Below are positions 3,449 to 26,133 of a stretch of 51,518 bases of DNA, in pieces. Each line of letters starts with the position of its first letter. Position 1 is the stretch's first letter. The stretch spans positions 1 to 51,518 of the forward strand of contig JAJZPJ010000001.1 in assembly GCA_021811225.1 (NCBI GenBank), read 5' to 3'. This DNA is from Pseudomonadota bacterium. Lineage in GTDB: Bacteria > Pseudomonadota > Gammaproteobacteria > Burkholderiales > Rhodocyclaceae. The notes beneath the pieces were generated by a model. The model did not search any database and was not told where the DNA came from. It saw only the letters and a list, made by a program, of their open reading frames with translations. Made by a program: the position numbers and the translations under genes.

Positions 3449-3449
3449 C

Positions 3450-10399: not shown

Positions 10400-10474
10400 T
10401 ATCAGCTCTCATTGAATCAGGCGGAGAAATGTAAATTCATATATAAAACAGATGCTTGGTTATTAATGTAAAAC

Positions 10475-10490: not shown

Positions 10491-10532
10491 CTAAGCAACT
10501 CCATGACAGTATCTAATACCAAGGGAACATTT

Positions 10533-11732
10533 GTGAAATCCCTCGAAAACATTCTCGTATTGGACCTGACGCACATGTTGTCAGGTCCTTATGGCGCCAT
10601 GCTCCTGTCCGACCTCGGGGCGAGGGCAATCAAGGTGGAATCCCCAATAAGCGGAGAAGGGACGCGCCAACTGCTGGCAACGAGCCCCGAGTATTCCCGT
10701 CAAGGAATGGGTGCCTACTTCTTGACGCTCAATCGCGGTAAGGAGAGCGTCTGCATCGATTTGAAGTCGGATGCTGGCCGGGAAGTCTTTTACGACTTGG
10801 TGCGCAAGGCGGATGTCGTTTTCGACAACTTCAGTGTTGGTGTCACCAAACGCCTGAAAATTGATCATGAGACGCTCGCCGCAATCAACCCCAGGATCGT
10901 GACCTGCTCCGTGTCCGGGTTTGGCGAGACTGGTCCGGAACCCACTCGGCCCGCATTCGATTCGGTGGTTCAGGGGATGGGCGGCGGCATGTCGATCACC
11001 GGGTTCCCGGGCGGAGAGCCGGTCAGATCCGGAATCCCGATTGGGGACCTTGGCGGTGGGATGTTTGGCGCACTCGGCATCCTTGCGGCGCTCATCGCCC
11101 GCGGCAAGAACGGGCGAGGCCAGCATGTCGATGTCTCGATGCTTGACGTGCAGATTTCGCTGCTCAATTACATGGCGACCATGTACCTCATGTCAGGGAT
11201 AGTCCCCGAGCCTATGGGCAATGCGCACTTCGTTCACGTACCCTACAATGCCTTTAGAACCCAGACCGGCTACATCATCATCGCCTGCATCGGCGATGCC
11301 TTCTATGAGAAGTTCCTAGAGGTGATTCCCCGCCCCGAGCTTCGTCAGGAAAAATACAAGAAGCAACCTGGTCGCTATGCCGAGCGCGACCTAATCAACC
11401 GCATCATTCAAGAAGAGCTGCTGGCGAATACCTCTGAGTATTGGCTGGAGAAGCTTCGGGCCGCCAGGATCCCCTGCGGGCCCGTCAATGATTTCAAGCA
11501 AGCGCTGCGTGACCCCCAGATCGTGGCTCGCAACATGGTCGTTAATGTGCAGCTGCAAACTGGCGAGACGGTCAGCATGCCGGGTAACCCGATCAAATTA
11601 TCAGAAGCCGGAGAGGAAGTGTTTTCGCCACCGCCCTTGTTGGGCGAGCATACCGATGCGGTTCTCAAGGATCTGCTCGGCTATGACGCGGAAAGAATCG
11701 CGCCGCTCAAGGCAGCAGGGATCATCCAATAA
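10533..11732 (+). CDS. family III (CaiB/BaiF) acyl-CoA transferase
   Basis: LENILVLDLTHMLSGPYGAMLLSDLGARAIKVE and the catalytic-Asp region RPAFDSVVQGMGG. The track start at 10479 lies inside the sigma-54 promoter. GTG 10533 sits 6 nt after AAGGGA; ATG 10503 is an alternative. Confidence 0.9.
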   Translation: MKSLENILVLDLTHMLSGPYGAMLLSDLGARAIKVESPISGEGTRQLLATSPEYSRQGMGAYFLTLNRGKESVCIDLKSDAGREVFYDLVRKADVVFDNFSVGVTKRLKIDHETLAAINPRIVTCSVSGFGETGPEPTRPAFDSVVQGMGGGMSITGFPGGEPVRSGIPIGDLGGGMFGALGILAALIARGKNGRGQHVDVSMLDVQISLLNYMATMYLMSGIVPEPMGNAHFVHVPYNAFRTQTGYIIIACIGDAFYEKFLEVIPRPELRQEKYKKQPGRYAERDLINRIIQEELLANTSEYWLEKLRAARIPCGPVNDFKQALRDPQIVARNMVVNVQLQTGETVSMPGNPIKLSEAGEEVFSPPPLLGEHTDAVLKDLLGYDAERIAPLKAAGIIQ

Positions 11733-11766
11733 GCAAGCGGCTTGGCAAGGAAACTACGGAGGAAAA

Positions 11767-13839
11767 ATGGGCGTTAGCACAGGATCAAGCTACAGACTGG
11801 GGGTCGATGTCGGTGGAACCTTCACCGACCTTCTGCTCATCAACGAGCAAACTGGGGAGACCTATTCGGCGAAAGTTCCTTCGACCCCCAAGGACTCATC
11901 GGTGGGCGTGTTGAACGGCGTCGGCAGGATCTGCGAACAGAACGGGATCGATCCGAAGCGGATCACCCACGTCATGCACGGCACGACGGTCGCTACCAAT
12001 ACCGTGCTCACGAGTTCAGGCGCCCGGGTTGGGCTGGTGACGACCAAGGGCTATCGACAGGTTCTGCAGATCGCCCGCTCATTCGTTCCCGGTGGCTTAG
12101 GCGGATGGGTGATTTACAACAAGCGTCCGCTTCTGGCGCCCCTTGAACTCACCATCGAAGCCGATGAGCGCATGGATGCCAAGGGCAAGGTTATCAAGCC
12201 GCTCGACGAGCCGGCCCTCAGGAAGCATCTGGAAAAGCTCGGCAAGAAGAACATCGAGGCGCTGACGGTTTCCCTCGTCAATGCCTATGCCGACGGCGCG
12301 CATGAGCGGCGGATACGAGAGATCGCGGCAGAAGTCATGCCGGAGATTCCCGTTTCGATCTCTTCCGAGATCATGCCCGAGATGTGCGAATACGAGAGGA
12401 CGGAGACCACCGTCGTCAACTCCTATGTCCGCCCGGTTGTTTCCCGCTACATCGCCAATTTGCATCGCGAACTCGATGCCAAGATGCCCGGGGTAAAGCT
12501 CCACATCCTACGTTCCGACGGCGGCCTGGCCTCAGTTGAAGCCTCCGCCAACAATCCGGTTAACCTGCTCATGAGCGGTCCGGCGGGAGGTGTCTCGGGG
12601 GCACTTTGGATTGCGCGACAATCGGGATTCAAGAACCTCCTCACCTTCGACATGGGCGGGACATCGACGGACGTCGCCCTGATTCAAGATGAGGTTGCGC
12701 AGACCCGTCGCGAGACACGGGTCGCCGATGTCACGGTGCGCGCGCCGTCGATCGACGTGCGCACGGTCGGCGCAGGCGGCGGCTCCATCGCCTATGTGCC
12801 GGAACTGACCAAGGCTTTGCGGGTCGGCCCGCAAAGCGCGGGCGCCGACCCCGGGCCCGCGGCCTATATGAAGGGTGGCGACAAGCCGACCGTTACCGAC
12901 GCCATCGTGGTCCTGGGCTACCTGCCGGTTTCTTCCCGACTCGGCGGCGACATGAGGATAGACAAGTCGCTCGCCGAGAAGGCGGTCGCCACCATCGCCG
13001 AACCGCTCGGCAAGTCGGTGAAGGAATCGGCCGAGGGCATCATCAATATCGTCAATGAGAACATGTTCGGTGCCCTGCGTCTGGTGTCGATCGAGCAAGG
13101 CTACGACCCGCGCGACTTCGCGCTGATCGCCTTCGGTGGCGCCGGCCCCTTGCACGCCAACGCGCTGGGCAAGTTGATGGGCTCCTGGCCGGTGATCATT
13201 CCACCGGCGCCGGGCGTCCTGTGTGCTTATGGAGATGCCACGACGCGTCTGCGCGATGAGGCTTCGCGTACCTACGTGCGCAGGTTCACCGAGACCTCTG
13301 ACGCCGAGGTTCTCGACATGCTCGACGATCTGGAGGGCATCGCCCGTCGGACCTTGATTGCCGAAGGTGTTTCGACAGAGAGCCAGACGACCGAATATCA
13401 GGTCGATCTGCGCTACCGTGGTCAAGGGATGCGCCTGACGATCAGCGTTACGCGTGAGGAGTTTGTCGACGCAGGCCTGGAGGGAATCGCCAAGCGCTTC
13501 GATGAGATGCACACCCAGTTGTTCACTTTCGCGCTCGATGCGCCCCACGAAGTGGTCAATCTTCGCGCCGTGGTGCAGGGACCGGAGACCCTGGTGCGGG
13601 CCGAGCAACTGAAGCAGGGTGGGACCGACGCGGCGGCTGCGATCGTGGAGCAGACGACCTTGTTCGTGGACGGTAAGGATCACCCGGCCAAGATCTATGA
13701 TCGCGCCAAGCTACTCGCCGGTAACCGGATTTCCGGACCGGCGATCGTCAGTCAGATGGACACCACTACCCTGATCCTTCCCGGGCATACCGGCGAAGTG
13801 GATGCGGTGGGCAATATTCTGATTCGCCCCAACGTCTGA
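11767..13839 (+). CDS. hydantoinase/oxoprolinase family, A (HyuA-like) subunit
   Basis: ATG 11767 follows ACGGAGGA. YRLGVDVGGTFTDLLL, FDMGGTSTDV and TVGAGGGSIA are the ASKHA-fold ATPase motifs of Hydantoinase_A. The first 93 codons of the track ORF overlap the previous gene. Confidence 0.92.
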   Translation: MGVSTGSSYRLGVDVGGTFTDLLLINEQTGETYSAKVPSTPKDSSVGVLNGVGRICEQNGIDPKRITHVMHGTTVATNTVLTSSGARVGLVTTKGYRQVLQIARSFVPGGLGGWVIYNKRPLLAPLELTIEADERMDAKGKVIKPLDEPALRKHLEKLGKKNIEALTVSLVNAYADGAHERRIREIAAEVMPEIPVSISSEIMPEMCEYERTETTVVNSYVRPVVSRYIANLHRELDAKMPGVKLHILRSDGGLASVEASANNPVNLLMSGPAGGVSGALWIARQSGFKNLLTFDMGGTSTDVALIQDEVAQTRRETRVADVTVRAPSIDVRTVGAGGGSIAYVPELTKALRVGPQSAGADPGPAAYMKGGDKPTVTDAIVVLGYLPVSSRLGGDMRIDKSLAEKAVATIAEPLGKSVKESAEGIINIVNENMFGALRLVSIEQGYDPRDFALIAFGGAGPLHANALGKLMGSWPVIIPPAPGVLCAYGDATTRLRDEASRTYVRRFTETSDAEVLDMLDDLEGIARRTLIAEGVSTESQTTEYQVDLRYRGQGMRLTISVTREEFVDAGLEGIAKRFDEMHTQLFTFALDAPHEVVNLRAVVQGPETLVRAEQLKQGGTDAAAAIVEQTTLFVDGKDHPAKIYDRAKLLAGNRISGPAIVSQMDTTTLILPGHTGEVDAVGNILIRPNV

Positions 13840-13861
13840 ACAACTGCGACGAGGACCCGTC

Positions 13862-15745
13862 ATGCCAGCCACCATCGTTCAAACCAACAACGCGCCTTTC
13901 AAGGACGTCAAGCTTGATTCCATTACCCTCGACATCATCGAGAATGCCCTGCGCAATGCGCGAGCAGAGATGGATGCGGTGCTCTTTCGCACCGCCATGT
14001 CCCCAGGAATCCGCGAGCAGCACGACGCCTTCCCGATGATCGCCAACAACGAAGGAAAGATGGTCGTCGGCCAGTTCGGCTCTTTCATCCACGGCTTCGT
14101 TCAGGGCTACGAGGGCACGATTGAAGAGGGTGACGTCTTCCTGACCAACGATCCCTATTCCTGCAATGGCGCCGTCAGTCATCTCAACGACTGGCTGACC
14201 TTGATGCCGGTATTCCACGACGGCCGCATCGTCAGCTGGGCGGCCATGTTTGGACACATGACCGACATCGGCGGGAAGGTACCGGGTAGCCTGCCTACAG
14301 ATGCCGCTCAGATTTTCGAAGAGGGGTTCCAGATTCCGCCGATCAAGCTGATCCGCAAGGGTGAACTGAATCGCGAAGTGCTGGAGATGATCCTGCGTAA
14401 CTGCCGCATGCCGGAATGGAACCGCTCCGATTTGAACGCCATAATCGCCGCGCTGCGCCTTGCCGAGCGGCGGGTGCACGAGATCGTCGAACGCTTCGGG
14501 GTGGACAATTACATCGCCGCCATGTACGAGATGCTCGACCGAAACAAGCGTGCGATGAGTGCCATCATCAAGATGGTGGTGCCGGAGAAGAAGGCCTACT
14601 TCGAGGACTATATCGACGACGATGGCCTGGGCATGGGTCCCTACAAGGTTGCCTGCAGCCTTTGGCGGGAGGGCGATGTCGCCCACTTCGATTTTGAGGG
14701 AACCGATCCGCAGTCGATTAGTTCGGTGAACTTCTACCTCAACGAGGAGATGTTCAAGATGTTCCTGGGGGCTTTCTTCATCAACCTGTTTGATCCGCAG
14801 ATCCTGTTCAACGACGGCTTCTATGAACTGGTCAGCGTGCGCATTCCGGACGGCTGCATTTTGAAGCCTAAGCGTCCGGCCGCACTCTCCTGCCGCACTC
14901 ACCTGCTCGGCCGTATCTTCGACATCATGGGCGGGCTCCTGGGCCAGGGGGCGCCAGAGGCTTTGAACGCCGCCGGATTCTCCGACAGCCCGCACCTCAT
15001 GTACTCAGGCTACGACCGGAATGGCGAGTGGTACCAGTTGTTCCAGATCGGCTTCGGCGGCATCCCCGGCCGTCCTTCTGGCGACGGCCCCGATGGTCAC
15101 TCACTCTGGCCCTCATTCACCAATGTGCCGAACGAATTTCTCGAGAGCTATTTCCCGTTGCGTATCATGGCCTACGAGTCGATTGCAGACTCCGGCGGCC
15201 CCGGCCAGCATCGCGGCGGCAATGGCGTGTGTACCGCTTATGAATTCCTCGAGACCGGGGAAATCTCGATTCATGACGACCGCTGGCTGACCTACCCCTG
15301 GGGCGTCAATGCCGGCCTTCCGGGTGGGCGCAGCAACAAACTCCTGGTGCGGAAGGATGGCTCGCAAGCGCATCTCCCATCGAAATGCGACCGGGTCAAG
15401 GTTCACGAGGGAGACATCCTCTATTACAACACCTGGGGTGGCGGTGGCTGGGGCGATCCCCTGAAGCGGCCGGCAGAAATGGTGGCTCAGGATTGCGAGC
15501 GCGGCCTGGTCACTGTCGCGGGCGCCCGTCGCTATGGCGTGGTGGTCAGCGAAGACTTCACGCTGGATCAGGCCGCCACGGCAGAACTGCGCCAGCAGAT
15601 GAGCACAGAGCGCAAGGAGGCGCCGCTGTTCAATCGCGGTGGCACGATCGAAGAACTGAAAGCCCGGTGCAAGGAGGAAACAACTTTCGAACCTCCGCGC
15701 ACGCCAGTCTTCGCCAACTGGATGCGTTCGAAGGCCGCGGTTTGA
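13862..15745 (+). CDS. hydantoinase/oxoprolinase family, B (HyuB-like) subunit
   Basis: LDSITLDIIENALRNARAEMDAVLFRTAMSPGIREQHDAFPMI and GGGGWGDPLKRPAEMVAQD are typical Hydantoinase_B N- and C-terminal signatures. Confidence 0.92.
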   Translation: MPATIVQTNNAPFKDVKLDSITLDIIENALRNARAEMDAVLFRTAMSPGIREQHDAFPMIANNEGKMVVGQFGSFIHGFVQGYEGTIEEGDVFLTNDPYSCNGAVSHLNDWLTLMPVFHDGRIVSWAAMFGHMTDIGGKVPGSLPTDAAQIFEEGFQIPPIKLIRKGELNREVLEMILRNCRMPEWNRSDLNAIIAALRLAERRVHEIVERFGVDNYIAAMYEMLDRNKRAMSAIIKMVVPEKKAYFEDYIDDDGLGMGPYKVACSLWREGDVAHFDFEGTDPQSISSVNFYLNEEMFKMFLGAFFINLFDPQILFNDGFYELVSVRIPDGCILKPKRPAALSCRTHLLGRIFDIMGGLLGQGAPEALNAAGFSDSPHLMYSGYDRNGEWYQLFQIGFGGIPGRPSGDGPDGHSLWPSFTNVPNEFLESYFPLRIMAYESIADSGGPGQHRGGNGVCTAYEFLETGEISIHDDRWLTYPWGVNAGLPGGRSNKLLVRKDGSQAHLPSKCDRVKVHEGDILYYNTWGGGGWGDPLKRPAEMVAQDCERGLVTVAGARRYGVVVSEDFTLDQAATAELRQQMSTERKEAPLFNRGGTIEELKARCKEETTFEPPRTPVFANWMRSKAAV

Positions 15746-15747
15746 AC

Positions 15748-16686
15748 ATGCCCGATCGCATCCAGATCAATGAGGTGAGCCCGCGGGACGGGCTGCAGAA
15801 TCAGGTCGTGCATTTGTCGCTCGACGAGAAGCTTGAACTCATCGATGCCCTGGTCGCGGCGGGGCTCACGGCGATCGAGGCCACCAGCTTCGTCTCGCCG
15901 AAAGCCGTGCCGCAGCTGGCCGACGCAGATCAACTCTTCCCGAGGCTGCCTCGCCCGGAACGCGTCAGCTATTCGGCGCTGGTGCCGAATGTGCGCGGCC
16001 TCGAGCGCGCCCTGACAGCGGGGGTTCGCGAGATTGCCGTGGTCCTGTCGGCCACCGATACCATGAACCGGCGCAACATCAATATGTCGCTCGGCGAGGC
16101 GCGCCAGGCTTGCATCGACGTGATGACGGCGGCAGGCGCAAGGGGCTTGCGGAAAAAGGCCTATGTGGCCGTTGCCTTCACTTGCCCCTTCGAGGGAAAG
16201 GTGGCCCCTGGCCGCGTGATCGAGCTTGCCGACGAGATGTTCGCCAACGGAGCCGACGAGGTGGTGATCGCCGACACTATTGGCGCCGCCAATCCGCGCG
16301 AGGTTTCCTCCTTGCTCGCGGACTGTGTCGAACGATTCGGGGCAGGATGTTTGGCAGCGCACTTCCATGACACGCGAGGCTTTGCCTTGGCGAATGCCTG
16401 GGCGGCGCTGACAGCGGGCGTCAGGCGCTTCGATGCCAGCATCGGCGGCTTGGGCGGTTGTCCCTTTGCACCGGGGGCGGCCGGCAACCTGGCGACCGAA
16501 GATTTGGTGCTGATGACGGAGCAATGCGGCTTTGAGACCGGCGTCGATGTAGCCAAGCTACGTCTGGCGGTGGCCATCGCCGAACGCCTTGTGCAAAGGT
16601 CGCTGGGAGGCAGGACAACGGCTTGGCTTCAGGCCCAAGATTTGAAGGAGCAGTGCCGGCGCGACAACGCCGGCGCTGCGTTTTAG
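15748..16686 (+). CDS. HMG-CoA-lyase-family (HMGL-like) acyl-CoA lyase
   Basis: ATG 15748 is 2 nt after the HyuB stop. INEVSPRDGLQN, HFHDTRGFALANAWAALTAGVRRFDASIGGLGGCPFAPGAAGNLATEDLV. Confidence 0.9.
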   Translation: MPDRIQINEVSPRDGLQNQVVHLSLDEKLELIDALVAAGLTAIEATSFVSPKAVPQLADADQLFPRLPRPERVSYSALVPNVRGLERALTAGVREIAVVLSATDTMNRRNINMSLGEARQACIDVMTAAGARGLRKKAYVAVAFTCPFEGKVAPGRVIELADEMFANGADEVVIADTIGAANPREVSSLLADCVERFGAGCLAAHFHDTRGFALANAWAALTAGVRRFDASIGGLGGCPFAPGAAGNLATEDLVLMTEQCGFETGVDVAKLRLAVAIAERLVQRSLGGRTTAWLQAQDLKEQCRRDNAGAAF

Positions 16687-16700
16687 GGAGAATCAAGGTG

Positions 16701-17684
16701 ATGAGACGATTGGGCAGGGTCTTGTCCTCGATCATGCCGTTCGCGATCATCGGTGGACTGCTCTATGCCGGCATTTTCGTCAAGCCGAAAGCCACGGGAG
16801 ACAGCGTTGAGCCGCCGGTACTCCAGCCTCGCGATGCCTTCTATGGCATCGCCGTTCCTGATGATAAGGTCATCTGGGCGGTAGGCCGTGGCGGCAAGGT
16901 GGTGCGCAGCGAGGATGCCGGCGCGCACTGGATTAGCCAGAAAACCCCGTCACGCCAGAGCCTGCAGTCCTTGATCGCCTGGGACGCCCGGCGCGCCTTC
17001 GCCGTTGGCAATCAGATGACCGTCTTGCACACCGAAGACGGCGGCAAGAAGTGGTCGGCGCTGGCCGGATTTGCCCAGGCCGGCGAAGTACAGAAACTGA
17101 TTCGGGCAAGGTCTGGGGCTGGCGGAAATGCCTGGATAGTGGGCGAAATGGGCAGCATCTTCGCCACTGCCGACTATGGCCAGACCTGGGTCAGACTCGG
17201 CAAGCGGGAGGACCTCGCGTGGAACGATATCGCCGCTCACGGCGCCTGGCTCACGGTGGTTGGCGAATTCGGCCACATCCGGTTGTCGGAGGACGGTGGG
17301 GCGAACTGGAAGGAGGTTGCGAGCCCGGTGAAATCCAGCCTGTGCGCGGTCATGTATCGCGATGAGCGCAATGGCGTGGCGGTCGGACTGGAGGGCGTGA
17401 TCCTGGTGACCAAGGACGGCGGCCGGACTTGGAGCAAGGTCGCCTCCGGCACCGCCGAACACCTCTACGATGTGGCCTGGACCGGCCAGCGTTGGGTCGC
17501 GGTAGGAGACCAGGGTCTCATTCTGACTGCAGAAGACCCCTCCGATGCTTGGCTCGTGCGCAGCATCTCAGAACGCAGCTATGCCTGGCATACCGGTCTT
17601 GTCAGTCGTGGCGATCGCCTCTACGTGGCCGGGGCTACGCTGGCCATGATCGATTCAAAGAATAAGGTTCAGACCTTCAAATGA
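16701..17684 (+). CDS. signal-anchored BNR/Ycf48-like beta-propeller protein
   Basis: ATG 16701 (or GTG 16698) follows GGGAG. It has an N-terminal hydrophobic anchor and then repeated S-x-D-x-G-x-x-W motifs (SEDAGAHW, TEDGGKKW, TADYGQTW, SEDGGANW, TKDGGRTW). Confidence 0.82.
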   Translation: MRRLGRVLSSIMPFAIIGGLLYAGIFVKPKATGDSVEPPVLQPRDAFYGIAVPDDKVIWAVGRGGKVVRSEDAGAHWISQKTPSRQSLQSLIAWDARRAFAVGNQMTVLHTEDGGKKWSALAGFAQAGEVQKLIRARSGAGGNAWIVGEMGSIFATADYGQTWVRLGKREDLAWNDIAAHGAWLTVVGEFGHIRLSEDGGANWKEVASPVKSSLCAVMYRDERNGVAVGLEGVILVTKDGGRTWSKVASGTAEHLYDVAWTGQRWVAVGDQGLILTAEDPSDAWLVRSISERSYAWHTGLVSRGDRLYVAGATLAMIDSKNKVQTFK

Positions 17685-20080
17685 CGTCTCCCGAATTATC
17701 CAAGGCCCCCGAGTCCAAGGTCGCCCGCTTCGTTCGCTTTTGCATCAGGCAGCGACTCGCGGTCGTACTCGTGATGGGCGTGCTGACCGCGGTGTTTGCC
17801 CTGCTCGCGGTGCAAATCGAGATCAAGACGGTCTTCGACGACCAGTTGCCGCAGAACCATCCCTACATCAAGGTGAACGACCAGTTCAAGCAGACCTTCG
17901 GCAGCTCCAACATGGTCAGCATCATGCTGGAGGTGAAGGACGGCGATATTTTCCAGCCGTCCGTGCTGAAGAAGATCCAGAAGGTCACTCAGGAGTTGCA
18001 ACTCGTCGATGGGGTGAACCAGTTTCAGATCATCTCACTGGCGGCAAAGAAACTGAAGGAGATCCGAGCGTCGACCGAAGGCATCGACATCAAGCCGCTG
18101 ATGTGGCCCAAGGTTCCGAAAACGCAAGGCGAAATCGATAAGCTTAAGGACGCGGTCCTGAGGAACCCGCTTGTCTACGGCACCTATGTATCCGCGGACC
18201 TAAAGGCAGCTCTGGTGACGGTCGATTTCTATGATAATGAAATTAATTACAAAAAAATCTATGACCAGATCGGCGCCATCACACGCTCCGTCGCCGGGGA
18301 CGGAGTTACGGTGCGCGTTGTTGGCGAGCCTATCCTCTATGGTTGGGTAAGGCATTACCTGCCCGAGACCGGGCGAATTTTTTTGGTTACGCTAGTTGCG
18401 TTGATCGCGCTGTTGTTCCTGACGGCGAGGACTTGGCGCGGCACCTTGCTGCCGCTCCTGGCCGGTGTCGTCAGCTCCATCTGGGCGCTAGGCGCGGCCC
18501 GACTGCTGGGATTCCATTTGGATCCCTTGGTGATCGTGGTGGCCTTCCTGATCACCGCCCGAGCGATCTCCCATTCGGTGCAACTGGTTACCCATTACGA
18601 CGACGAGCTCGCCGCGGGGGCAGAGAATTCAGCGGCGGCGGCGACCGCCGCCATGTACGCCCTGTTCAAGCCGGGGATGCTCGGTGTCGTTGCCGATGCG
18701 GGCTGCATGATCGTCGTGATTCTGACTCCCATCCCGCTGCTGCAGAAGGTCGCCATGATCGGCACGGTCTGGGTTCTGACGATTGCGATCAGCGCCGTCG
18801 TGCTGACCCCGGTGTTGTTGTCCTGGATCAAGAGACCCAACCAGTTCGCCCATCCGATCAACGTGCGTCCCATGATGGAGCGCCTGCTCGGCGGTTGCGT
18901 GCGCATTGCCAGCACGCGTATGCGCTATGTCGTGGTCGCGGCGACCGCGGTGATTTTCGTGGTATCGGGCATTTACGCCTTCAAGCTGAAGGTCGGTGAT
19001 GCCAATCCCGGTTCCCCCATCCTTTGGGGCGACTCGACCTACAATCAGGACGCTGCCGCCATCAATCAGCGTTTCCAGGGGGCAGACCGGATGTTTGTGG
19101 TCTTCTCGGGGGACAAGACCGATGCGTTGAAGGAGCCGGCCGCCCTGCAGAGCATGGCCGCTTTCCAGGCGTACATGGAGAATCAGCCCGGGGTGGGCGG
19201 TACGCTGTCCATGGCCGACATCGTGCCGATCATGAACCGCATTCTGCACGAGGGTAATCCGCGCTACGAGGAACTAGGCACGAGTTTCGTCGAGAACGGC
19301 GAGATCATGTATCTGTTCACCTCAGGCACCGACCCCGGCGACATCGACCGCCTAGTCGATCCGCAATACAAGAATGCCTCGGTCACCATCCTGTTCCGGG
19401 ATCACCAGGGCGAGACCATCCGCTCGGCCATTTCGCACGTCGAGGACTTCGTCGCCGCGCACCCGGACAGCACCGTCAAGATTCGGCTGGCGGGCGGCTT
19501 GATTGGCGTGCTGGCCGCGGTCAATGAAATCATCTTGTCGAAACAGATTGAGAGCATAGCCTTGGCCTTGCTGGTGCTGGTGCTCTGCTGCGCGGTGGCC
19601 TACCGTTCGCTCGCCGCCGGCCTGTTCTTCATGGTGCCGGTGCTGCTCTCCAACACCCTTACTTTCAGCTTCATGGCCTGGAAGGGGATAGGCATGAACA
19701 TCAACACCCTGCCGATCGCGGCCTTGGGCATAGGGCTCGGCGTTGATTATTCTTTTTATGTGGTTGATGAGATTCGCGAGGAACTTCGTCGCGGAGAGCC
19801 CTTGTTCAAGGCTATCGAACTTTCCTTGATGAGCGCCGGCCGTGGCGTACTGATCACCGCTGCGACCCTGATTACCAGCGTGGTCATCTGGTACCTGTCC
19901 TCAATTCGATTCCAGGCAGAGATGGGGATACTCATGGCCTTGTGGCTGTTCATTTCGGCGGCGACATCCCTGCTGGTCATGCCCGCTTTGGTGGTCTTGC
20001 TAAAGCCCAAATTTATTTTTGAGTCGGTGGGCAAGTCGGGGCCGAGCCGAAATACGGCCATGCTCCAGGAAGCGATGTAA
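17681..20080 (+). CDS. RND-superfamily MMPL/HpnN-like permease
   Basis: ATGA overlap with the previous gene. 799 aa with two blocks of about six helices, each preceded by a large soluble loop. No membrane-fusion or TolC-type partner is encoded nearby. Confidence 0.85.
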   Translation: MTSPELSKAPESKVARFVRFCIRQRLAVVLVMGVLTAVFALLAVQIEIKTVFDDQLPQNHPYIKVNDQFKQTFGSSNMVSIMLEVKDGDIFQPSVLKKIQKVTQELQLVDGVNQFQIISLAAKKLKEIRASTEGIDIKPLMWPKVPKTQGEIDKLKDAVLRNPLVYGTYVSADLKAALVTVDFYDNEINYKKIYDQIGAITRSVAGDGVTVRVVGEPILYGWVRHYLPETGRIFLVTLVALIALLFLTARTWRGTLLPLLAGVVSSIWALGAARLLGFHLDPLVIVVAFLITARAISHSVQLVTHYDDELAAGAENSAAAATAAMYALFKPGMLGVVADAGCMIVVILTPIPLLQKVAMIGTVWVLTIAISAVVLTPVLLSWIKRPNQFAHPINVRPMMERLLGGCVRIASTRMRYVVVAATAVIFVVSGIYAFKLKVGDANPGSPILWGDSTYNQDAAAINQRFQGADRMFVVFSGDKTDALKEPAALQSMAAFQAYMENQPGVGGTLSMADIVPIMNRILHEGNPRYEELGTSFVENGEIMYLFTSGTDPGDIDRLVDPQYKNASVTILFRDHQGETIRSAISHVEDFVAAHPDSTVKIRLAGGLIGVLAAVNEIILSKQIESIALALLVLVLCCAVAYRSLAAGLFFMVPVLLSNTLTFSFMAWKGIGMNINTLPIAALGIGLGVDYSFYVVDEIREELRRGEPLFKAIELSLMSAGRGVLITAATLITSVVIWYLSSIRFQAEMGILMALWLFISAATSLLVMPALVVLLKPKFIFESVGKSGPSRNTAMLQEAM

Positions 20081-20139
20081 AGCCAGGGTCGCTGGCAATT
20101 TCAGCGGCACTTTCGCATTTCAAAGGAAGGAGTCAAGAC

Positions 20140-21861
20140 ATGGGGCAAGATCAGAAGTTGGCAACAGCACTTCGGCCGGTGATCCTCGCGGTGTTGGCGG
20201 CGGCATGGAGCGGGGCGTCATACGGTGCCGATGGGGGCAACAAGATCCCCGAGAGCCAGCCGTCATTGAGTGCCGATGGGGACAACATTATTCCGGAGAG
20301 CCGGTTCCATCTGGGCGGTTATGTTCGCGGCGCGGCATCAATGAACCTCCAGGACCAGCCGGAAACGACGGGCAACGACAAGGGCAAGCTCTCGATGCTG
20401 AGGGGCACCGTGCTGCTCGACGCGGACTACAAAGCCAGCACGACCGCACAATTCAAGGTCATTGCCCGGGCTGATCGCGAAGACAATACCAGCTACCTGC
20501 AGTCGCTCGCGGCGCCTCCAAGCCAGAAGCCGGCCGGATCGACTGCGGTGGTCTTTAATACCAACGGCGGCGGCGGCGTCGGCGGCCTCATGAATATGTA
20601 CAATCAGGCCGACCTACGTGAATTATGGGGCCAGTTCGATCTGAACGACAGGGTGAGGATCAAGCTCGGCAAGCAGCAAATCGTCTGGGGCGAGAGCGAC
20701 TTCTTTCGCGCCATGGATATCGTGGAGGGCTTCGACTACAGCTGGCGCTCCTTCCTCGAGGTGGAGAACGAGGAACTGCGCAAGCCGCTGATCATGGGTC
20801 GGATGATGATTCAGGTGCCCGAGGCCAATGGTTCCGTCGATGCCTATGTTCGACCCGGCTGGGACCGTGATCGTGACATCGGCAACACCTATGATCTCGC
20901 CGGTGGTCGCTGGGCCGCCCAACCGACCCGCGGCGCGAGCTTCCTCTATGCCACCGGCTATAACTACCATAGTAAGGGCGCAGATGTCCGCGACCCGACG
21001 GGCGGCATCCGCTGGCAGGGGATGGCGGGCGAGATCAACTACTCGGTCGCGCTGGCCAACACCTTCAATAATGACCCGGTCGCCAATCCGTGCCCGAGCA
21101 CCTTGGCGATTTTGGGGAGCAAGGGTGCACAAGTCTTCAAGCAGGCTCCTATCAACTGCGGCTTCGGCAGCAAGGACCCCTACGGCAATCCCTTACAGTT
21201 TGGCGACTGGATATTTCCCAAGACCAGCATCCTGGGGATGACCGCATCGGGATATTCCAACGCCATGGATGCGGTGTTGTCGACGGAAATCGTGTTCCAG
21301 AAGGACCGCGCCTTCAACTACGGCTTCATCGATGGAAAATTCGGACCCAACATAACGCCGGGGGCGTTCGGCATCATCCAGAAGAACACCCTGACGACCA
21401 TGTTCCGCATCGACAAGAACATCGACCTGACCGGCATCATCGGCACCAGCCGACCTTCCTTCGGTTCGCTGCAATTCTTCAACACCCGCATCCTGGGCTT
21501 CGACAAGAGCGATGAGATCGTACAACTGGCCTACTGGGACCGCGCCCGTTCCCGCGACTCGGCGATGTTGACCGCCATCCTGGGCATGAACTACAGCAAC
21601 GACCGCATCAATCCTTCGATCGCGGCAGGCTGGGACATGAGCTACGGCGGCGGCTTCTTCATTCCGTCCGTCGAGTGGGTGCTGGGCGACAACTGGCGCG
21701 TGAAGGGCGAACTGGATCTGTTCTATGCCGGAGGCAACACCAAGAACTACTACCTCAGCCCAACCACCGGCGCCTTTGACCGCCAGGGCAGCAGCGCGGG
21801 CTTGATGGGCTACTTCGCGAACTCCGACCAGCTCGCGGTCCGCGTGACGCGCCAGTTCTGA
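20140..21861 (+). CDS. DUF1302-family outer-membrane (beta-barrel-like) protein
   Basis: Signal peptide (AVLAAAWSGASYGADG), LGKQQIVWGESDFFRAMD, and a C-terminal aromatic residue (RVTRQF). The RBS is AAGGAAGGAG. Confidence 0.8.
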   Translation: MGQDQKLATALRPVILAVLAAAWSGASYGADGGNKIPESQPSLSADGDNIIPESRFHLGGYVRGAASMNLQDQPETTGNDKGKLSMLRGTVLLDADYKASTTAQFKVIARADREDNTSYLQSLAAPPSQKPAGSTAVVFNTNGGGGVGGLMNMYNQADLRELWGQFDLNDRVRIKLGKQQIVWGESDFFRAMDIVEGFDYSWRSFLEVENEELRKPLIMGRMMIQVPEANGSVDAYVRPGWDRDRDIGNTYDLAGGRWAAQPTRGASFLYATGYNYHSKGADVRDPTGGIRWQGMAGEINYSVALANTFNNDPVANPCPSTLAILGSKGAQVFKQAPINCGFGSKDPYGNPLQFGDWIFPKTSILGMTASGYSNAMDAVLSTEIVFQKDRAFNYGFIDGKFGPNITPGAFGIIQKNTLTTMFRIDKNIDLTGIIGTSRPSFGSLQFFNTRILGFDKSDEIVQLAYWDRARSRDSAMLTAILGMNYSNDRINPSIAAGWDMSYGGGFFIPSVEWVLGDNWRVKGELDLFYAGGNTKNYYLSPTTGAFDRQGSSAGLMGYFANSDQLAVRVTRQF

Positions 21862-21887
21862 ATCCCAGACTTGATTAAGGAGATAAC

Positions 21888-23150
21888 ATGAAACAGAGAT
21901 ACATCGCCCGCTTCCTCTTGGTGGGGCTGGTAACCATGACTTCGGCAGGCGCTGCGCTGGCGGTCGAACTGGCCGCAGGCACGGTGATCAGCAAGGCCAA
22001 TATCGACCAGGTCAAGAATGACACCTTCGAGGGCAAGACTATCGCCAGCATGCTGCCGGAAAAGATGGACATGCAGATCCGCAAATACGGCTTGACGCTC
22101 AAGCTGCGCAAATCCCAGCCGATCGCACTCGATCCGAAAATGCTCGAGGCAACCCACAAATATGCCGGCCAGGTCAGGTACGATGCGGCAAAGAACGAGG
22201 TCAGCGGCTACAAGGCCGGCTTGCCCTTTCCGAACCTCAGCCCTACGGACCCGAACTATGCCGCGAAGCTGGTGTGGAACGTCTACTATGCTTCGCCGGT
22301 GGGGCAGGTGATGGACTTCCGTAAATTCGCTTTTCTGCTGATCGATGGCGACAAGGGTCTGGAGCGAACCCAGCACTGGTTCTTCCTGCGTGACTTCATG
22401 AAGAATCGGCTGACGGGTTCCGGGGTTCCGGTGGAAGGCGATGGCACCGAGTTCACCCGGACCCTGCTGTTCGCCACCTATCCGGAGGACATCCGCGGCA
22501 TCGGCACCTATACCATCCGCTATGATGGTCCGCAGGTGGAAGACCAATGGGTCTATATCAAGAGCTTCCGCCGCACTCGCCGGCTGCCCGGCGGCGCCTG
22601 GATGGATCCGATCGGTGGCACCGACCAACTGAATGACGACATCGAGATCTGGAATGCCCGCCCTAGCTGGTATAAGTCCTTCAAGTATCTCGGCAAGCGC
22701 TGGGTATTGGCGACAGTCCGCGGAGCCAAGGCCTGGGACGAGTCGAAGAAGGGCACGCCCGCAGAATTCCCGCTGGTCGATCTCACGCACGCGCCCTACT
22801 GGAACCCTCTTGACGAGGTCGAGCCGCGCGAGGTGTATGTCGTAGAGGCCGTTCCGCCGCCCGAGCATCCCTACAGCCGCAAGGTGATCTACATCGACAC
22901 GCAGATCCCGCGTATTTTATACGGCGAGGCCTATGATAAAAAGGGTGATTTTTGGAAGTGGATGGCCTTCAGCAGTCGCCCCCTCAAGGGCGAAGACGGG
23001 GTTCAGACCTGGGTCTCTAACCAGGGCCTTGTCATCGACTTCAAGCGCATGCATGCGACGGTCTTCGTTTCCCATCCGTCATGGAGGACCAATACAGCCG
23101 TCAAGGCATCGGATGTGACGCTGGGCAAGCTAGAGGCCGCCGGCCAGTAA
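21888..23150 (+). CDS. DUF1329-family periplasmic LolA-like protein
   Basis: Signal peptide MKQRYIARFLLVGLVTMTSAGAALA. The length and motif layout are typical of DUF1329 proteins, which pair with DUF1302. Confidence 0.78.
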   Translation: MKQRYIARFLLVGLVTMTSAGAALAVELAAGTVISKANIDQVKNDTFEGKTIASMLPEKMDMQIRKYGLTLKLRKSQPIALDPKMLEATHKYAGQVRYDAAKNEVSGYKAGLPFPNLSPTDPNYAAKLVWNVYYASPVGQVMDFRKFAFLLIDGDKGLERTQHWFFLRDFMKNRLTGSGVPVEGDGTEFTRTLLFATYPEDIRGIGTYTIRYDGPQVEDQWVYIKSFRRTRRLPGGAWMDPIGGTDQLNDDIEIWNARPSWYKSFKYLGKRWVLATVRGAKAWDESKKGTPAEFPLVDLTHAPYWNPLDEVEPREVYVVEAVPPPEHPYSRKVIYIDTQIPRILYGEAYDKKGDFWKWMAFSSRPLKGEDGVQTWVSNQGLVIDFKRMHATVFVSHPSWRTNTAVKASDVTLGKLEAAGQ

Positions 23151-23223
23151 GAGTACCATAGCAACAGGCCCCTACGGGGGAGTAGGCCGTGCCTGCTCCC
23201 CATTTTCCTTGAGAGGATAAGCC

Positions 23224-23826
23224 ATGGCGACGCCGCCCAACAAAGCGGTCGGTCTGGGCGCCAAGTCCGCACTCATCGTTGTCGATGCTACCCTCGGTTT
23301 CACCGACCCCGGTTCGCCGTTGGGGTGCCCAAGCGATATTGAAGTCGGAGCGATCAAGCGCCTGCTTGGTGCCTTTCGCAGGCACCGGCTACCGATCGTG
23401 TTCACGACCAATGCCTATAGCCATCCGGCGGAAGCCAGCGTATTCAGGGAGAAGCTCCCTCTGTTGAATGAACTCGTCGTCGGCGGTGCTCTCGCTGCCA
23501 TAGACCCGCGCTTGCAGCCACAGGTGGGCGAAGTCGTTCTGAACAAAGGGGTTCCCAGCGCTTTTTTCGACAGCCCCTTACGGCAAATGCTCTGCAATAT
23601 GGGCGTCGACTCGGTCGTGGTCTGCGGCTTCAGCACCAGCGGTTGCGTCAGGGCGACAGCTGTCGATGCCCTGCAATCCAATTTCCGTCTGATGGTGGTA
23701 GCGGATGCCTGCGGCGATCGAGACAGGGCAGCACACGCCGCCAATTTGCGCGACCTCGGGCTCAAGTACGGCGACGTCGTCGATCTCGATACCGCCTTGG
23801 AAATGATCGAGCGCCTGCCTTGCTAG
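23224..23826 (+). CDS. isochorismatase-family (cysteine) amidohydrolase
   Basis: Catalytic triad context: ALIVVDAT (Asp), LNKGVPSAF (Lys), GFSTSGCVRATAVDA (Cys). This is the same family as N-carbamoylsarcosine amidase, maleamate amidohydrolase NicF and RutB. Confidence 0.88.
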   Translation: MATPPNKAVGLGAKSALIVVDATLGFTDPGSPLGCPSDIEVGAIKRLLGAFRRHRLPIVFTTNAYSHPAEASVFREKLPLLNELVVGGALAAIDPRLQPQVGEVVLNKGVPSAFFDSPLRQMLCNMGVDSVVVCGFSTSGCVRATAVDALQSNFRLMVVADACGDRDRAAHAANLRDLGLKYGDVVDLDTALEMIERLPC

Positions 23827-23841
23827 AAAAAGTGAACTGCT

Positions 23842-25251
23842 ATGGCAAATACATTGTTTGACAAGGTTTGGGAAGCGCATCAGATTGCAGCACTTGCCGG
23901 CAATGTCAGTCTGCTGCATGTGGATCGTCATTTGCTGCATGAGCTAACGGGCTCAGCGGCGATTAAACAGCTGGAAAAACGCGGCGTAGCGATACGCGAT
24001 CCAGGACTGACCTTCGCCACACTGGATCACGTGATCTCGACCAAGCCGGGTCGCACTACGGGCGATGAGGGCTGGAGTACCGTGATGGTGGACACGCTGC
24101 GCGAGCAAACCACGCGCATGAAAATTCAGCGCTTCGACATAGAAGACGGGCGCCAGGGCATTGTGCACGTGATCGGACCCGAAATGGGCCTGACACTTCC
24201 TGGCCTCGTCATTGTCTGTGGCGATAGCCATACCTGCACGCACGGCGCATTCGGCGCGATCGCCTGGGGCATCGGCTCTTCCGAACTGGTGCATGTATTG
24301 GCAACGCAGACCATTCGGCAACGGCGGCCCAAAACCATGCGCGTGAATTTCAATGGCACACCAAGTGAGGGCGTTGCCGCCAAGGATCTGATTCTTTACT
24401 TGATTGGCGTGCTCGGCACCTCAGCCGGCATCGGTTACGCAGTCGAATTCGCCGGTCCGGCAATTCGCCAGCTCGATATGGAAGGTCGCATGACCTTGTG
24501 CAACCTGTCTATCGAACTCGGCGCGAAAATGGGCATGATCGCACCGGATGAGGTGACGTTCGCATACCTGCAAGGCCTGGAGTTTGCCCCGAGGGGCGAG
24601 CAATTCGATCTGGCCGTCGACAGCTGGAAGCTGCTGGCGTCAGGTGCCGACGCCGTATTTGACAAGGAAGTCGACATCGACGTTGCCGCCGTCAAACCCC
24701 AGGTCACTTGGGGCACGAGTCCGGAGCATGCAGCGTCCATTGATGCGACAGTGCCTGATCCGGCGGCTGAAAGTGATTTGGCGCGGCGTGCAGCCCTGGA
24801 AGGCGCGCTTGCGTATATGCAGCTGGAGCCCGGCCAACCCATCGACCAGATCCCGATTGACCACGTATTCATAGGCTCCTGTGCGAATAGCCGGTTGTCC
24901 GACCTGCAGTCTGCGGCACGGGTAGTCAAGGGCCGACGCATCGCTCCCAACGTCACCGGATGGGTGGTGCCCGGTTCGCTGAAAGTGAAACGACAGGCCG
25001 AGAGTGAAGGTCTGGATCGGATTTTTCTTGATGCCGGATTCGAGTGGCGTGAGCCGGGCTGCTCGATGTGCGTGGGCGCAAACGGCGACTTAGTCGGTCC
25101 TGGACAGCGTTGCGTTTCGACATCGAACCGCAACTTCGTGGGACGTCAAGGACCCGGCGCGCTGACTCATCTGGCAAGTCCGGCAGTTGCCGCAGCCAGC
25201 GCGATCGCGGGCACCATCGCTTGTCCGGAAATGATCGGATACAAATCATGA
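23842..25251 (+). CDS. aconitase-family dehydratase large subunit (LeuC-like)
   Basis: LFDKVWEAH, HVDRHLLHE, VCGDSHTCTHGAFGA, IGSCANSRLSDL and CSMCVGANGD (the Fe-S cysteines). Confidence 0.9.
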   Translation: MANTLFDKVWEAHQIAALAGNVSLLHVDRHLLHELTGSAAIKQLEKRGVAIRDPGLTFATLDHVISTKPGRTTGDEGWSTVMVDTLREQTTRMKIQRFDIEDGRQGIVHVIGPEMGLTLPGLVIVCGDSHTCTHGAFGAIAWGIGSSELVHVLATQTIRQRRPKTMRVNFNGTPSEGVAAKDLILYLIGVLGTSAGIGYAVEFAGPAIRQLDMEGRMTLCNLSIELGAKMGMIAPDEVTFAYLQGLEFAPRGEQFDLAVDSWKLLASGADAVFDKEVDIDVAAVKPQVTWGTSPEHAASIDATVPDPAAESDLARRAALEGALAYMQLEPGQPIDQIPIDHVFIGSCANSRLSDLQSAARVVKGRRIAPNVTGWVVPGSLKVKRQAESEGLDRIFLDAGFEWREPGCSMCVGANGDLVGPGQRCVSTSNRNFVGRQGPGALTHLASPAVAAASAIAGTIACPEMIGYKS

Positions 25252-25859
25252 AGGCATTTACCATATGTGAAGGCTACGCCGCCCCCCTCATGCATGACAA
25301 CATCGATACCGATCTGATCATCCGCATCGAGCGTATCGCCAAACTCAAGCGTGGTGAATTCGCACCGTGGGCATTCGAGGCGAACCGTTATTTTGCTGAT
25401 GGCGCTGAGGACCCGAGCTTCGTACTGAATCAGGTCCCATTCCGGAAAGCGCAGATTCTGATCTCTGGCGCCAATTTTGGATGCGGTAGTTCGCGCGAAA
25501 TGGCGGTGTGGTCAATTGAGGAATTTGGCATACGCTGCATCATCGCACAAAGCTACGGTGATATTTTTTTCGGCAACTGTCTGCAAAACGGCGTGCTGCC
25601 GATTACGCTCGAACAAAATCAGATCAATGCGCTGGCGAAAGTGGCAGCGTCAGGCGCCACAGTAAAAGTTGACTTGCAGACCTGCACGATTTCGACCGTT
25701 GCGACTGGCGCAATATCATTTGCGTTTCCAGAAGCTCAGCGTCAGGCATTGCTAACTGGGTGCGACGAAGTCGATCAGACGCTGAAAATTGCGTCGCAGA
25801 TCGACCGGTTTCAGCAGGAGGATCGACGCGTGCGACCTTGGGTTTATAACGTGGGATGA
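25248..25859 (+). CDS. aconitase-family dehydratase small subunit (LeuD-like)
   Basis: ATGA overlap with the large subunit. DNIDTDLIIR, GANFGCGSSREMAVWSIEEFGIRCIIAQSYGDIFFGNCLQNG. Confidence 0.88.
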   Translation: MKAFTICEGYAAPLMHDNIDTDLIIRIERIAKLKRGEFAPWAFEANRYFADGAEDPSFVLNQVPFRKAQILISGANFGCGSSREMAVWSIEEFGIRCIIAQSYGDIFFGNCLQNGVLPITLEQNQINALAKVAASGATVKVDLQTCTISTVATGAISFAFPEAQRQALLTGCDEVDQTLKIASQIDRFQQEDRRVRPWVYNVG

Positions 25860-26133
25860 TCAGAACGGCCGAAGCGATCAATCCCCAACGATTTTGCGCA
25901 CTCTGACGCGCTTCGCCTGTCGCCGGGTTGATTCAGCTCCGCTCTCGCGGAACCGAATCAAGCAGGTAGAATGTAGACAATTCTAGTTGTTTGGCTGCTT
26001 TACTTCCACTTCGTTGGAGACCGAATCGATGATGAACCTGATCAAGGCTGGCGAAGGCTTCGTTGTATTGTTTAACCAACTTAGGTACGCACAACCGTTC
26101 TAGCGCGAGGCGGGCGACCGAGGCGATCGCGGC

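Follow-up and report, generated by a model that had tools for sequence, protein, structure and literature searches.

What do the seven enzyme genes on a low-GC island of a Rhodocyclaceae bacterium degrade, and do they work together in one pathway? The island lies in a stretch of 51,518 nucleotides (contig JAJZPJ010000001.1 of assembly GCA_021811225.1), here called the window. A first interpretation of its letters, the sequence-only reading, had ordered the genes into a five-step route from a cyclic amide to acetyl-coenzyme A (CoA) plus pyruvate. The seven genes, assigned to families by Pfam and NCBIfam profile scores, encode five enzymes within 10533-25859, and each was found on the plus strand where that reading had placed it. 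They follow one another in this order:

10533-11732, plus strand: family III (CaiB/BaiF) CoA-transferase with a full-length PF02515 domain
11767-13839, plus strand: HyuA, ATP-binding subunit of an enzyme of the hydantoinase/oxoprolinase family
13862-15745, plus strand: HyuB, catalytic subunit of the same enzyme
15748-16686, plus strand: HMGL-type (DRE-TIM) acyl-CoA lyase
23224-23826, plus strand: isochorismatase-family cysteine amidohydrolase of the N-carbamoylsarcosine amidase/maleamate amidase subgroup
23842-25251, plus strand: LeuC-like large subunit of a two-subunit aconitase-family (de)hydratase
25248-25859, plus strand: LeuD-like small subunit with a non-housekeeping substrate loop

Comparison with related loci shows that these genes form one conserved and apparently co-regulated set, and that the predicted hydratase, CoA-transferase and lyase also exist as a unit of their own. 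No association is more constant than that of the upper pair, HyuAB and an isochorismatase-type amidase. With moderate confidence we interpret the locus as a catabolic operon of three modules under sigma-54/PrpR control, which would convert a cyclic imide or amide to an acyl-CoA and a 2-oxo acid.

In a species-representative genome collection at least 597 stretches matched HyuB. Eighty of these loci were fetched, many of them from marine metagenome-assembled genomes (MAGs) including Luminiphilus, Halieaceae and Rhodospirillaceae. HyuB of the window type is 67-83% identical across Alpha-, Beta- and Gammaproteobacteria. Neighbours belonging to the families of the window were counted by tblastn on 82 HyuB loci with up to 10 kb of flank on each side. 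Of the 82 loci, 50 had an isochorismatase near HyuB, 55 a family III CoA-transferase and 34 an HMGL lyase; the latter two occurred together in 28, and LeuC was found in four. The other neighbours were counted by de novo clustering of open reading frames (ORFs), a crude procedure with some antisense miscalls, which gave PrpB-like ICL/PEPM lyases (8 loci), MmgE/PrpD proteins (8), MaoC/mesaconyl-CoA-hydratase-like proteins (4), acyl-CoA dehydrogenases (11), AtzE-like amidases (9), TauD dioxygenases (11) and alpha/beta-hydrolases (12). Loci without LeuCD or HMGL carry PrpB-like lyases, MmgE/PrpD, MaoC-like proteins or acyl-CoA dehydrogenases of similar function instead, all of which fit branched C5-dicarboxylate chemistry (PMC12290011). 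By their predicted functions, the carbon-handling partners of HyuAB all belong to the chemistry of branched C4-C6 di- and tricarboxylates.

The architecture of the operon becomes clearer from a Massilia locus (L098). There, a regulator (52% identical to that of the window) is divergent from genes for a CoA-transferase (66%), an HMGL lyase (62%), four ABC-transporter components, LeuC (76%) and LeuD (64%), and neither HyuAB nor the amidase is present at this locus. Set against the Massilia genes, the window has HyuAB after the CoA-transferase, a four-gene Ame-type envelope module in the transporter slot, and the amidase before LeuC. This comparison shows a putative backbone of regulator / CoA-transferase - lyase - [transporter] - LeuC - LeuD, of which the window operon appears to be a composite. 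Insertions into a backbone of the Massilia type explain the apparent separation of the enzyme genes into two halves on either side of the transport module; this division had been noticed before and is borne out, with the Ame-type module occupying 16701-23150. Hydration, CoA transfer and cleavage had been proposed as successive steps, and the stand-alone Massilia operon with its orthologous regulator supports their treatment as one unit.

All seven enzyme genes are also present, in a different order, at locus L097, and again on a conjugative plasmid of Acidiphilium multivorum (NZ_CP041720.1, 36-56 kb; L092/L093). The plasmid region additionally carries a second CoA-transferase/HMGL/isochorismatase set, two polysaccharide-deacetylase-family genes, an FAD oxidoreductase, a porin and an MFS gene, and it has insertion sequence elements on one flank and type IV secretion genes on the opposite flank. 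The order HyuAB - HMGL - BNR - RND - DUF1302 - DUF1329 - amidase is common to Sterolibacterium (L102) and Roseateles (L103); the two differ at the 3' end, where L102 has a SnoaL-like gene and an ICL-type lyase and L103 nothing comparable. In Denitratisoma (L010) the order is CoA-transferase - HyuAB - HMGL - amidase - CN_hydrolase. Paucibacter sp. JuS9 (L101) has the regulator (54%), CoA-transferase (71%), HMGL (65%) and amidase (62%) followed by an MFS gene, and the region ahead of the CoA-transferase (2679-7872) encodes a TonB-dependent receptor, two secreted proteins of the CpcT/CpeT (bilin-lyase) family and a DUF1838 protein. Because the grouping is found again, with its genes reshuffled, in three proteobacterial classes (Alpha, Beta and Gamma) as well as on a conjugative plasmid, it is not a product of chance; the functional linkage of the five enzymes, as claimed by the sequence-only reading, is strengthened by this recurrence.

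Some further neighbours were observed at the related loci. DUF1838 homologues lie upstream of HyuA in L013 (directly) and in L015. Sua5/YciO/YrdC-like proteins, often paired, flank the isochorismatase next to HyuAB in 14 of the 82 loci by de novo clustering, and also at 12030-14225 in L097; none is encoded in the window. The marine gammaproteobacterial loci L065-L068 and related ones of Luminiphilus and Halieaceae contain, beyond this, a TauD dioxygenase, an exporter of the EamA type, a further isochorismatase and a RutD/PcaD-like hydrolase, and also a luciferase-like monooxygenase and a TonB-dependent receptor, a set reminiscent of components of the Rut pathway.

HyuA and HyuB are clear members of the hydantoinase/oxoprolinase superfamily. 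They have full-length domains in two subunits (HyuA: Hydantoinase_A 309, the N-terminal domain Hydant_A_N 165 and the C-terminal domain Hydant_A_C 48 bits; HyuB: Hydantoinase_B, PF02538, 499 bits), encoded by adjacent genes 22 bp apart. Among solved structures, HyuA scored highest with N-methylhydantoinase (451 bits), followed by caprolactamase (382), acetophenone carboxylase (305) and acetone carboxylase (231). HyuB matched the beta subunit of caprolactamase (228 bits) and N-methylhydantoinase (225) better than acetophenone carboxylase (115) and acetone carboxylase (84). By these bit scores the two subunits do not group with the acetone carboxylases, a comparison that the sequence-only reading had proposed as a check. 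The caprolactamase equivalogs NF050156/NF050157 (CapAB) were the best NCBIfam models for both subunits, though with 545 and 230 bits against a cut-off of 1000 they were far from reached. Since both subunits remain well under the caprolactamase cut-offs, the HyuAB of the window is placed in a separate, hydrolase-like clade. The Apc carboxylase models gave 120-310 bits against cut-offs of 1250-1500, so that an assignment to the carboxylases is not warranted by them. No further ORF of at least 190 amino acids with a coding signature was found in the island, which rules out genes for an acyl-CoA dehydrogenase, a beta-oxidation enzyme or a small carboxylase (gamma) subunit there; the lack of all three had already been pointed out and is confirmed by this survey.

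The amidase (PF00857 Isochorismatase, 115 bits) falls among the amide and ureide hydrolases of its fold. Its nearest relatives in the PDB were an N-carbamoylsarcosine amidohydrolase (146 bits), 4l07/4l08 (128 bits), which we take to be the maleamate amidase of Pseudomonas putida S16, NicF (3ot4/3uao, 106 bits) and the N-carbamoylsarcosine amidase of Arthrobacter (93 bits). Both enzyme types to which it had been compared beforehand, N-carbamoylsarcosine amidase and NicF, are thus among its closest solved relatives. A candidate Asp, Lys, Cys triad, assigned by eye, is located in the motifs ALIVVDAT, VVLNKG and TSGCV. Many close homologues are named 'maleamate amidohydrolase' by JGI, which is an automatic label. 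None of the nic genes that form the context of NicF (2,5-dihydroxypyridine dioxygenase, deformylase, maleate isomerase) is present in the island.

Both subunits of LeuCD pass the equivalog models of biosynthetic LeuC and LeuD (LeuC: TIGR00170 621 bits, cut-off 560, with 530 bits for the Aconitase Pfam domain; LeuD: TIGR00171 155 bits, cut-off 116). Identity to the Escherichia coli proteins is 52% for LeuC and 32% for LeuD. The LeuD of the window has the motifs DLIIRIERI and GSSREMAVW where E. coli and L012 have DAIIPKQFL and GSSREHAPW, and neither leuA nor leuB is present in the 51.5-kb window. LeuC is 66-81% identical to copies in the catabolic clusters L094 and L097-L100. The neighbours of these copies are a CoA-transferase, HMGL, HyuAB and amidase in L097; a CoA-transferase, HMGL and ABC transporter in Massilia; and GntR, an ABC transporter and one or two methylisocitrate-lyase-like genes beside LeuCD in Pollutimonas (L099), Paraburkholderia bryophila (L100) and Burkholderia sp. 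SFA1 (L094). One NCBIfam model, TIGR02087, is named 'LeuD/DmdB family'. The window LeuCD is therefore assigned to a putative non-housekeeping clade, as the proposed comparison with true LeuCD had left to be decided, and a housekeeping isomerase is rejected for the window on account of the divergent LeuD, the loop motif and the catabolic contexts of the closest relatives. The pairing of this clade with C-C lyases, which parallels that of dimethylmaleate hydratase with dimethylmalate lyase, argues for a role as alkylmaleate hydratase.

The CoA-transferase matched CoA_transf_3 (PF02515) with 410 bits over positions 1-366 of 366 and stayed below every NCBIfam equivalog cut-off. Its scores against solved structures were close to each other: formyl-CoA transferase 276, succinate-hydroxymethylglutarate CoA-transferase 261 and YfdE 260 bits. 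The lyase (HMGL-like Pfam domain 156 bits; NF004283 350 bits, cut-off 246) was aligned to 1ydo and 2cw6. The motifs PRDGLQN, TSFVSPK, HFHDT and GGLGGCP of the human 3-hydroxy-3-methylglutaryl (HMG)-CoA lyase are kept, and with them the catalytic Arg-Asp, the Glu, the His-x-His and the loop Cys of the family. It is roughly equidistant from the HMG-CoA lyases of Bacillus (254 bits), human (235) and Pseudomonas aeruginosa (218), with the Brucella enzyme within the span of 254-218 bits. An assignment to LiuE does not fit, with the P. aeruginosa score below those of Bacillus and human and no liu genes (isovaleryl-CoA dehydrogenase, methylcrotonyl-CoA carboxylase, methylglutaconyl-CoA hydratase) in the island. 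The clustering with leucine-catabolic HMG-CoA lyases that would have spoken against the proposed route was accordingly not seen.

Four elements bear on the regulation of the operon:

8358-10298, minus strand: PrpR-type sigma-54 enhancer-binding activator with PrpR_N, PAS, AAA+ and HTH_8 domains, divergent from the operon
10330-10403: inverted repeat with the arms ATGTTTCAAA / TTTGAAACAT, a candidate upstream activator site
10475-10489, plus strand: sigma-54 -24/-12 promoter-like element TGGCATgggcaTTGC
23177-23201, plus strand: GC-rich hairpin followed by AUUUUCCUU (a weak U-tract), between the DUF1329 and amidase genes

The activator scored 590 bits with the PrpR model TIGR02329 (cut-off 499), and its combination of PrpR_N, sigma-54 AAA+ and HTH domains with a -24/-12 element at the operon places it in the PrpR-type family. 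Orthologues with 52-63% identity lie divergently upstream of the CoA-transferase gene in L012, L097, L098 and L101. The promoter element has one mismatch to TGGCAC-N5-TTGC. The count of this motif across the whole window is not above chance, and hence the weight of the element comes solely from its position and from its conservation: equivalent elements lie at the same relative position before the orthologous CoA-transferase gene in the same four loci. Some 75-145 bp upstream of it is the inverted repeat, with arms of 20 nt that are 80% complementary and have a perfect core of 10 nt. GTTTCA/TGAAAC half-sites also occur upstream of the orthologous operons in L012 (6416-6457), L098 (4186-4198) and L101 (2496-2536). 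Inverted repeat and promoter element together have the layout expected of a sigma-54 activator site, and the repeat is a candidate binding site of the PrpR-type protein. The sensor probably responds to an intermediate of the lower pathway, because the regulator is common to the window and to Massilia, which has no upper module.

The public annotation starts the CoA-transferase with an ATG at 10479 (417 amino acids), inside the -24/-12 element. A GTG at 10533 after AAGGGA gives a protein of 399 amino acids, equal in length to the L012 orthologue, and fits better; the ATG start is unlikely, and the choice of 10533 made by the sequence-only reading holds. The plus-strand genes are spaced by -4 to +73 bp. 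The longest spacer, of 73 nt, holds the hairpin before the amidase gene, which has an 11-bp stem with 8 GC pairs; the spacer has a folding energy of -26.7 kcal/mol (z = -1.9). The hairpin is possibly a partial terminator, an attenuation site or a transcript-processing site, and co-transcription of the last three genes (amidase, LeuC and LeuD) with the rest is plausible.

How could these enzymes cooperate? HyuAB would spend ATP on opening a stable cyclic imide or amide ring, and the amidase would then strip off the exposed amide or carbamoyl nitrogen, freeing ammonia or CO2 and ammonia. The upper module would thus deliver a substituted C4-type di- or tricarboxylate besides ammonia. In the lower module, the LeuCD-like enzyme may hydrate a cis-unsaturated acid of the (alkyl)maleate type to a 2-alkylmalate of the citramalate type, which would be activated by the family III CoA-transferase and cut as CoA ester by the HMGL-type lyase, giving acetyl-CoA or another acyl-CoA and a 2-oxo acid; the latter would be pyruvate if the substituent is methyl. 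As the third module, the Ame-type RND system would handle the substrate or protect the cell from it.

Several observations weigh against this scheme. LeuCD accompanies HyuAB in just 4 of the 82 loci, is missing in L103 and replaced in L102; it is rare among HyuAB loci, and the hydration step for an unsaturated acid is thus not shared by the entire family. L012, the closest relative in the genome collection (HyuB 83% identical), has no amidase within 10 kb, and the leuCD following its island (19302-21416) looks housekeeping, being 62% identical to leuCD of E. coli. The amidase partner varies as well, the L097 copy being just 30% identical to that of the window, and Paucibacter has CoA-transferase, HMGL and amidase without HyuAB or LeuCD nearby. 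Known imidases hydrolyse cyclic imides without ATP. The lyase passes the cut-off of the NCBI HMG-CoA lyase subfamily, and the CoA-transferase resembles succinate-hydroxymethylglutarate CoA-transferase about as much as other members of its family; an HMG-type substrate is therefore possible. A terminator-like hairpin lies 5' of the amidase gene. Of the five-step pathway as originally proposed, support was obtained for the linkage of the enzymes, the hydrolase type of HyuAB, the kinship of the amidase, the non-housekeeping character of LeuCD and the unity of the last three steps. Against its supposed self-containment speak the loci of the closest layout, in which LeuCD is absent (L103), replaced (L102) or housekeeping-like (L012), and the exporter role of the only characterised Ame-type module.

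The scarcity of LeuCD is accommodated if a saturated or hydroxylated ring directly gives a hydroxy- or alkyl-dicarboxylate for CoA-transferase and lyase (citramalate, 3-hydroxy-3-methylglutarate or methylsuccinate, for example), LeuCD being an accessory side-entry for a related unsaturated acid. We regard this as unlikely, yet as an explanation to be taken seriously. The invariant set would then be CoA-transferase, HMGL and amidase with HyuAB optional, and LeuCD is indeed missing in L010, L103 and L101. The match of the lyase to the HMG-CoA lyase subfamily and the 261 bits of the CoA-transferase agree with such products, and the alphaproteobacterial loci with acyl-CoA dehydrogenase, PrpD-like and MaoC-like genes match the methylsuccinate route (PMC12290011). 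However, LeuCD is associated with the set in no fewer than five independent contexts (window, L097, L044, L051/L064 and the Acidiphilium plasmid), in Massilia it is co-regulated with CoA-transferase and HMGL, and a housekeeping LeuCD could cover the step where a dedicated copy is absent. Rather improbable is a division of the operon into two pathways, in which HyuAB and amidase convert a cyclic ureide to an amino acid and the remaining enzymes degrade an unrelated organic acid. As in creatinine catabolism, an N-substituted hydantoin would be opened to an N-carbamoyl compound, from which CO2 and NH3 are released. The top solved structures of the amidase (N-carbamoylsarcosine amidohydrolase) and of HyuA (N-methylhydantoinase) fit this division, as do the Sua5/YrdC-like proteins, a family linked to carbamoyl-adenylate chemistry, and the extra C-N hydrolases (AtzE-like amidases, the CN_hydrolase of L010, the polysaccharide-deacetylase-family genes on the plasmid). 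Yet maleamate amidases score nearly as high as N-carbamoylsarcosine amidase, the set has no recurrent partner among amino-acid oxidases, dehydrogenases and aminotransferases, a single regulator serves both parts, and in the window, L010 and L012 HyuAB is interleaved between the CoA-transferase and lyase genes.

A role of HyuAB as ATP-dependent ketone carboxylase of the acetone/acetophenone type, with a hydrophobic ketone or the lyase product as substrate, is highly improbable and was rejected. HyuAB shares its protein superfamily with these carboxylases, and a module of the Ame type is a typical component of islands that deal with hydrophobic substrates. The similarity of HyuB to the carboxylases is low, though (84-115 bits against 225-228 with the hydrolases), the gaps around hyuA and hyuB (34, 22 and 2 bp) leave no gene for a gamma or other extra subunit, and the near-constant amidase partner would have no explanation; the preference for a hydrolase in the sequence-only reading is supported by the same points. 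Finally, unrelated genes could have been gathered by chance in a mobile island and form no pathway. With a GC fraction of 0.55-0.62 the island is poorer in GC than the core genes on either side (0.67-0.71), and in a related MAG cluster and ssb are on different contigs. But the same families recur in three proteobacterial classes in varied order and with orthologous regulators and promoters, so that chance juxtaposition is hardly credible and was rejected. The imide/amide operon of three modules is the preferred interpretation.

On the nature of the ring, it is a long shot that the substrates are alkyl-substituted cyclic imides and that HyuAB-amidase with variable lower modules constitutes a widespread, undescribed route for their mineralisation. 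Candidates would, by way of speculation, be methyl-, ethyl-, vinyl- and carboxyethyl-maleimides and the matching succinimides, such as hematinic acid imide and methylethylmaleimide. Alkylmaleimides such as hematinic acid imide are common monopyrrolic end products of the oxidation of chlorophyll, heme and bilins. From chemical reasoning, the rings of dialkylmaleimides and dialkylmaleamates resist opening to an unusual degree, and for this reason ATP would be required. An origin of the imides from tetrapyrroles is hinted at by the downstream enzymes, which suit acids of the alkylmaleate, alkylmalate, methylsuccinate and methylisocitrate type, by the abundance of the HyuB clade in marine MAGs, and by the CpcT/CpeT-family proteins and the TonB-dependent receptor of the Paucibacter locus.

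The transport module consists of four genes:

16701-17684, plus strand: AmeC-like periplasmic Ycf48/BNR beta-propeller protein (PSII_BNR 75 bits)
17681-20080, plus strand: AmeD-like RND transporter of the HAE3/MMPL family (MMPL 120 bits, TIGR00921 HAE3 169 bits)
20140-21861, plus strand: AmeA-like DUF1302 outer-membrane protein (PF06980 51 bits)
21888-23150, plus strand: AmeB-like DUF1329/LolA-like periplasmic protein (PF07044 193 bits)

Systems of the AmeABCD type are defined by an HAE3 RND pump whose gene accompanies those for DUF1302, DUF1329 and COG4447/BNR proteins. These four families are known as a co-fitness module (bioRxiv 10.1101/072470), for which an esterase role has been speculated (bioRxiv 10.1101/2020.07.04.188060). 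In Castellaniella defragrans, deletion of AmeABCD lowered monoterpene tolerance and increased dye accumulation (PMC6394551), a phenotype that indicates export. The only characterised module of this kind is thus an exporter/tolerance system and not a proven importer. As in C. defragrans, the four families are encoded together inside a catabolic island; unlike there, the gene order in the window is C-D-A-B. The module accompanies HyuAB also in L012, L097, L102, L103 and, in part, L090. Within the DUF1302 gene, two tandem 45-nt copies (20208-20297) are 76% identical and encode a duplicated segment of 15 residues right after the predicted signal peptide.

The low-GC block as a whole extends from about 8.3 to 25.9 kb (8300-25900) and comprises twelve genes, 11 on the plus strand and the regulator on the minus strand. 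To its left are uvrA, an MFS gene and ssb, to its right an NMT1-like gene, rsmI, a pyrC-like gene, DUF3025 and the dcw cell-division cluster. A search of the window revealed no integrase, tRNA or flanking direct repeats marking the borders. A related Rhodocyclaceae MAG has the same gene order (consecutive accessions HUW36395-36402). Because cluster and ssb are on separate contigs there, the island behaves as a mobile block, which was presumably acquired horizontally.

A full-text literature search for the cluster and for the gene combination found no description. All protein families involved are known; new are their assembly, the wide spread of this HyuAB clade and the modular picture of ring opening and deamidation feeding a hydratase, CoA-transferase and lyase route. 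The clade represents a common, ATP-consuming enzyme system without an assigned function. Cultured carriers of the set or of parts of it are available (Massilia sp. CP012640, Paucibacter sp. JuS9, Acidiphilium multivorum JZ-6, Denitratisoma oestradiolicum, Pollutimonas and Paraburkholderia bryophila). Knowing the substrate would extend the map of organic-nitrogen turnover by one pathway, and it would correct automatic labels such as N-methylhydantoinase, HMG-CoA lyase and leucine-biosynthetic LeuCD.

The upper module of the window resembles the creatinine/N-methylhydantoin pathway, in which an ATP-dependent HyuA/HyuB likewise opens the ring before an isochorismatase-fold cysteine amidohydrolase acts. 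The window differs from this pathway in that creatinine deaminase and sarcosine oxidase are absent from it and the pair sits among dicarboxylate-CoA enzymes; the HyuAB is also distant from the solved N-methylhydantoinase (HyuB 225, HyuA 451 bits). With caprolactamase CapAB, which is among its top structure matches, it would share ATP-dependent hydrolysis without extra subunits. However, opening of caprolactam yields an amine and leaves no task for an amidase, and the scores are far under the CapAB equivalog cut-offs. The amidase belongs to the same isochorismatase subgroup as NicF/Ami of nicotinate and nicotine degradation, whose product is a cis-unsaturated dicarboxylate in need of further processing. 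In the nic clusters a dioxygenase opens the ring, HyuAB in the window, and whereas the nic pathway isomerises maleate to fumarate, the window has a LeuCD-type hydratase instead of a maleate isomerase.

For the lower module, nicotinate fermentation by Eubacterium barkeri offers a parallel, compared here by description. DmdAB, a two-subunit hydratase of the LeuCD family, reportedly acts there on dimethylmaleate, and a 2,3-dimethylmalate lyase follows. In Burkholderia, Pollutimonas and Paraburkholderia the LeuCD clade of the window is similarly paired with lyases of the PrpB-like ICL/PEPM kind. The lyase of the window itself, in contrast to that of E. barkeri, is of the CoA-dependent HMGL type and would require the CoA-transferase. 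Friedmann and colleagues are said to have described in 2007 (Friedmann et al. 2007) that succinyl-CoA:D-citramalate CoA-transferase and R-citramalyl-CoA lyase are encoded side by side in Chloroflexus aurantiacus. The pairing of a family III CoA-transferase with an HMGL-family lyase in 28 of the 82 HyuB loci is alike as a gene pairing; the Chloroflexus pair serves an autotrophic cycle, whereas that of the window would serve the catabolism of a nitrogen compound. The itaconate/methylsuccinate cluster comprises Ict, Ich, Ccl, methylsuccinyl-CoA dehydrogenase as well as an isomerase of the MmgE/PrpD type, and its route leads through CoA transfer, hydration and cleavage of citramalyl-CoA to acetyl-CoA and pyruvate (PMC12290011). 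Genes of the PrpD-like, MaoC-like and acyl-CoA dehydrogenase types near HyuAB in alphaproteobacterial loci are reminiscent of this cluster. Yet in the itaconate route MaoC hydrates the CoA ester, whereas LeuCD of the window is proposed to hydrate the free acid before CoA transfer, and the window combines a lyase of the HMGL type with an upper module that would remove the nitrogen.

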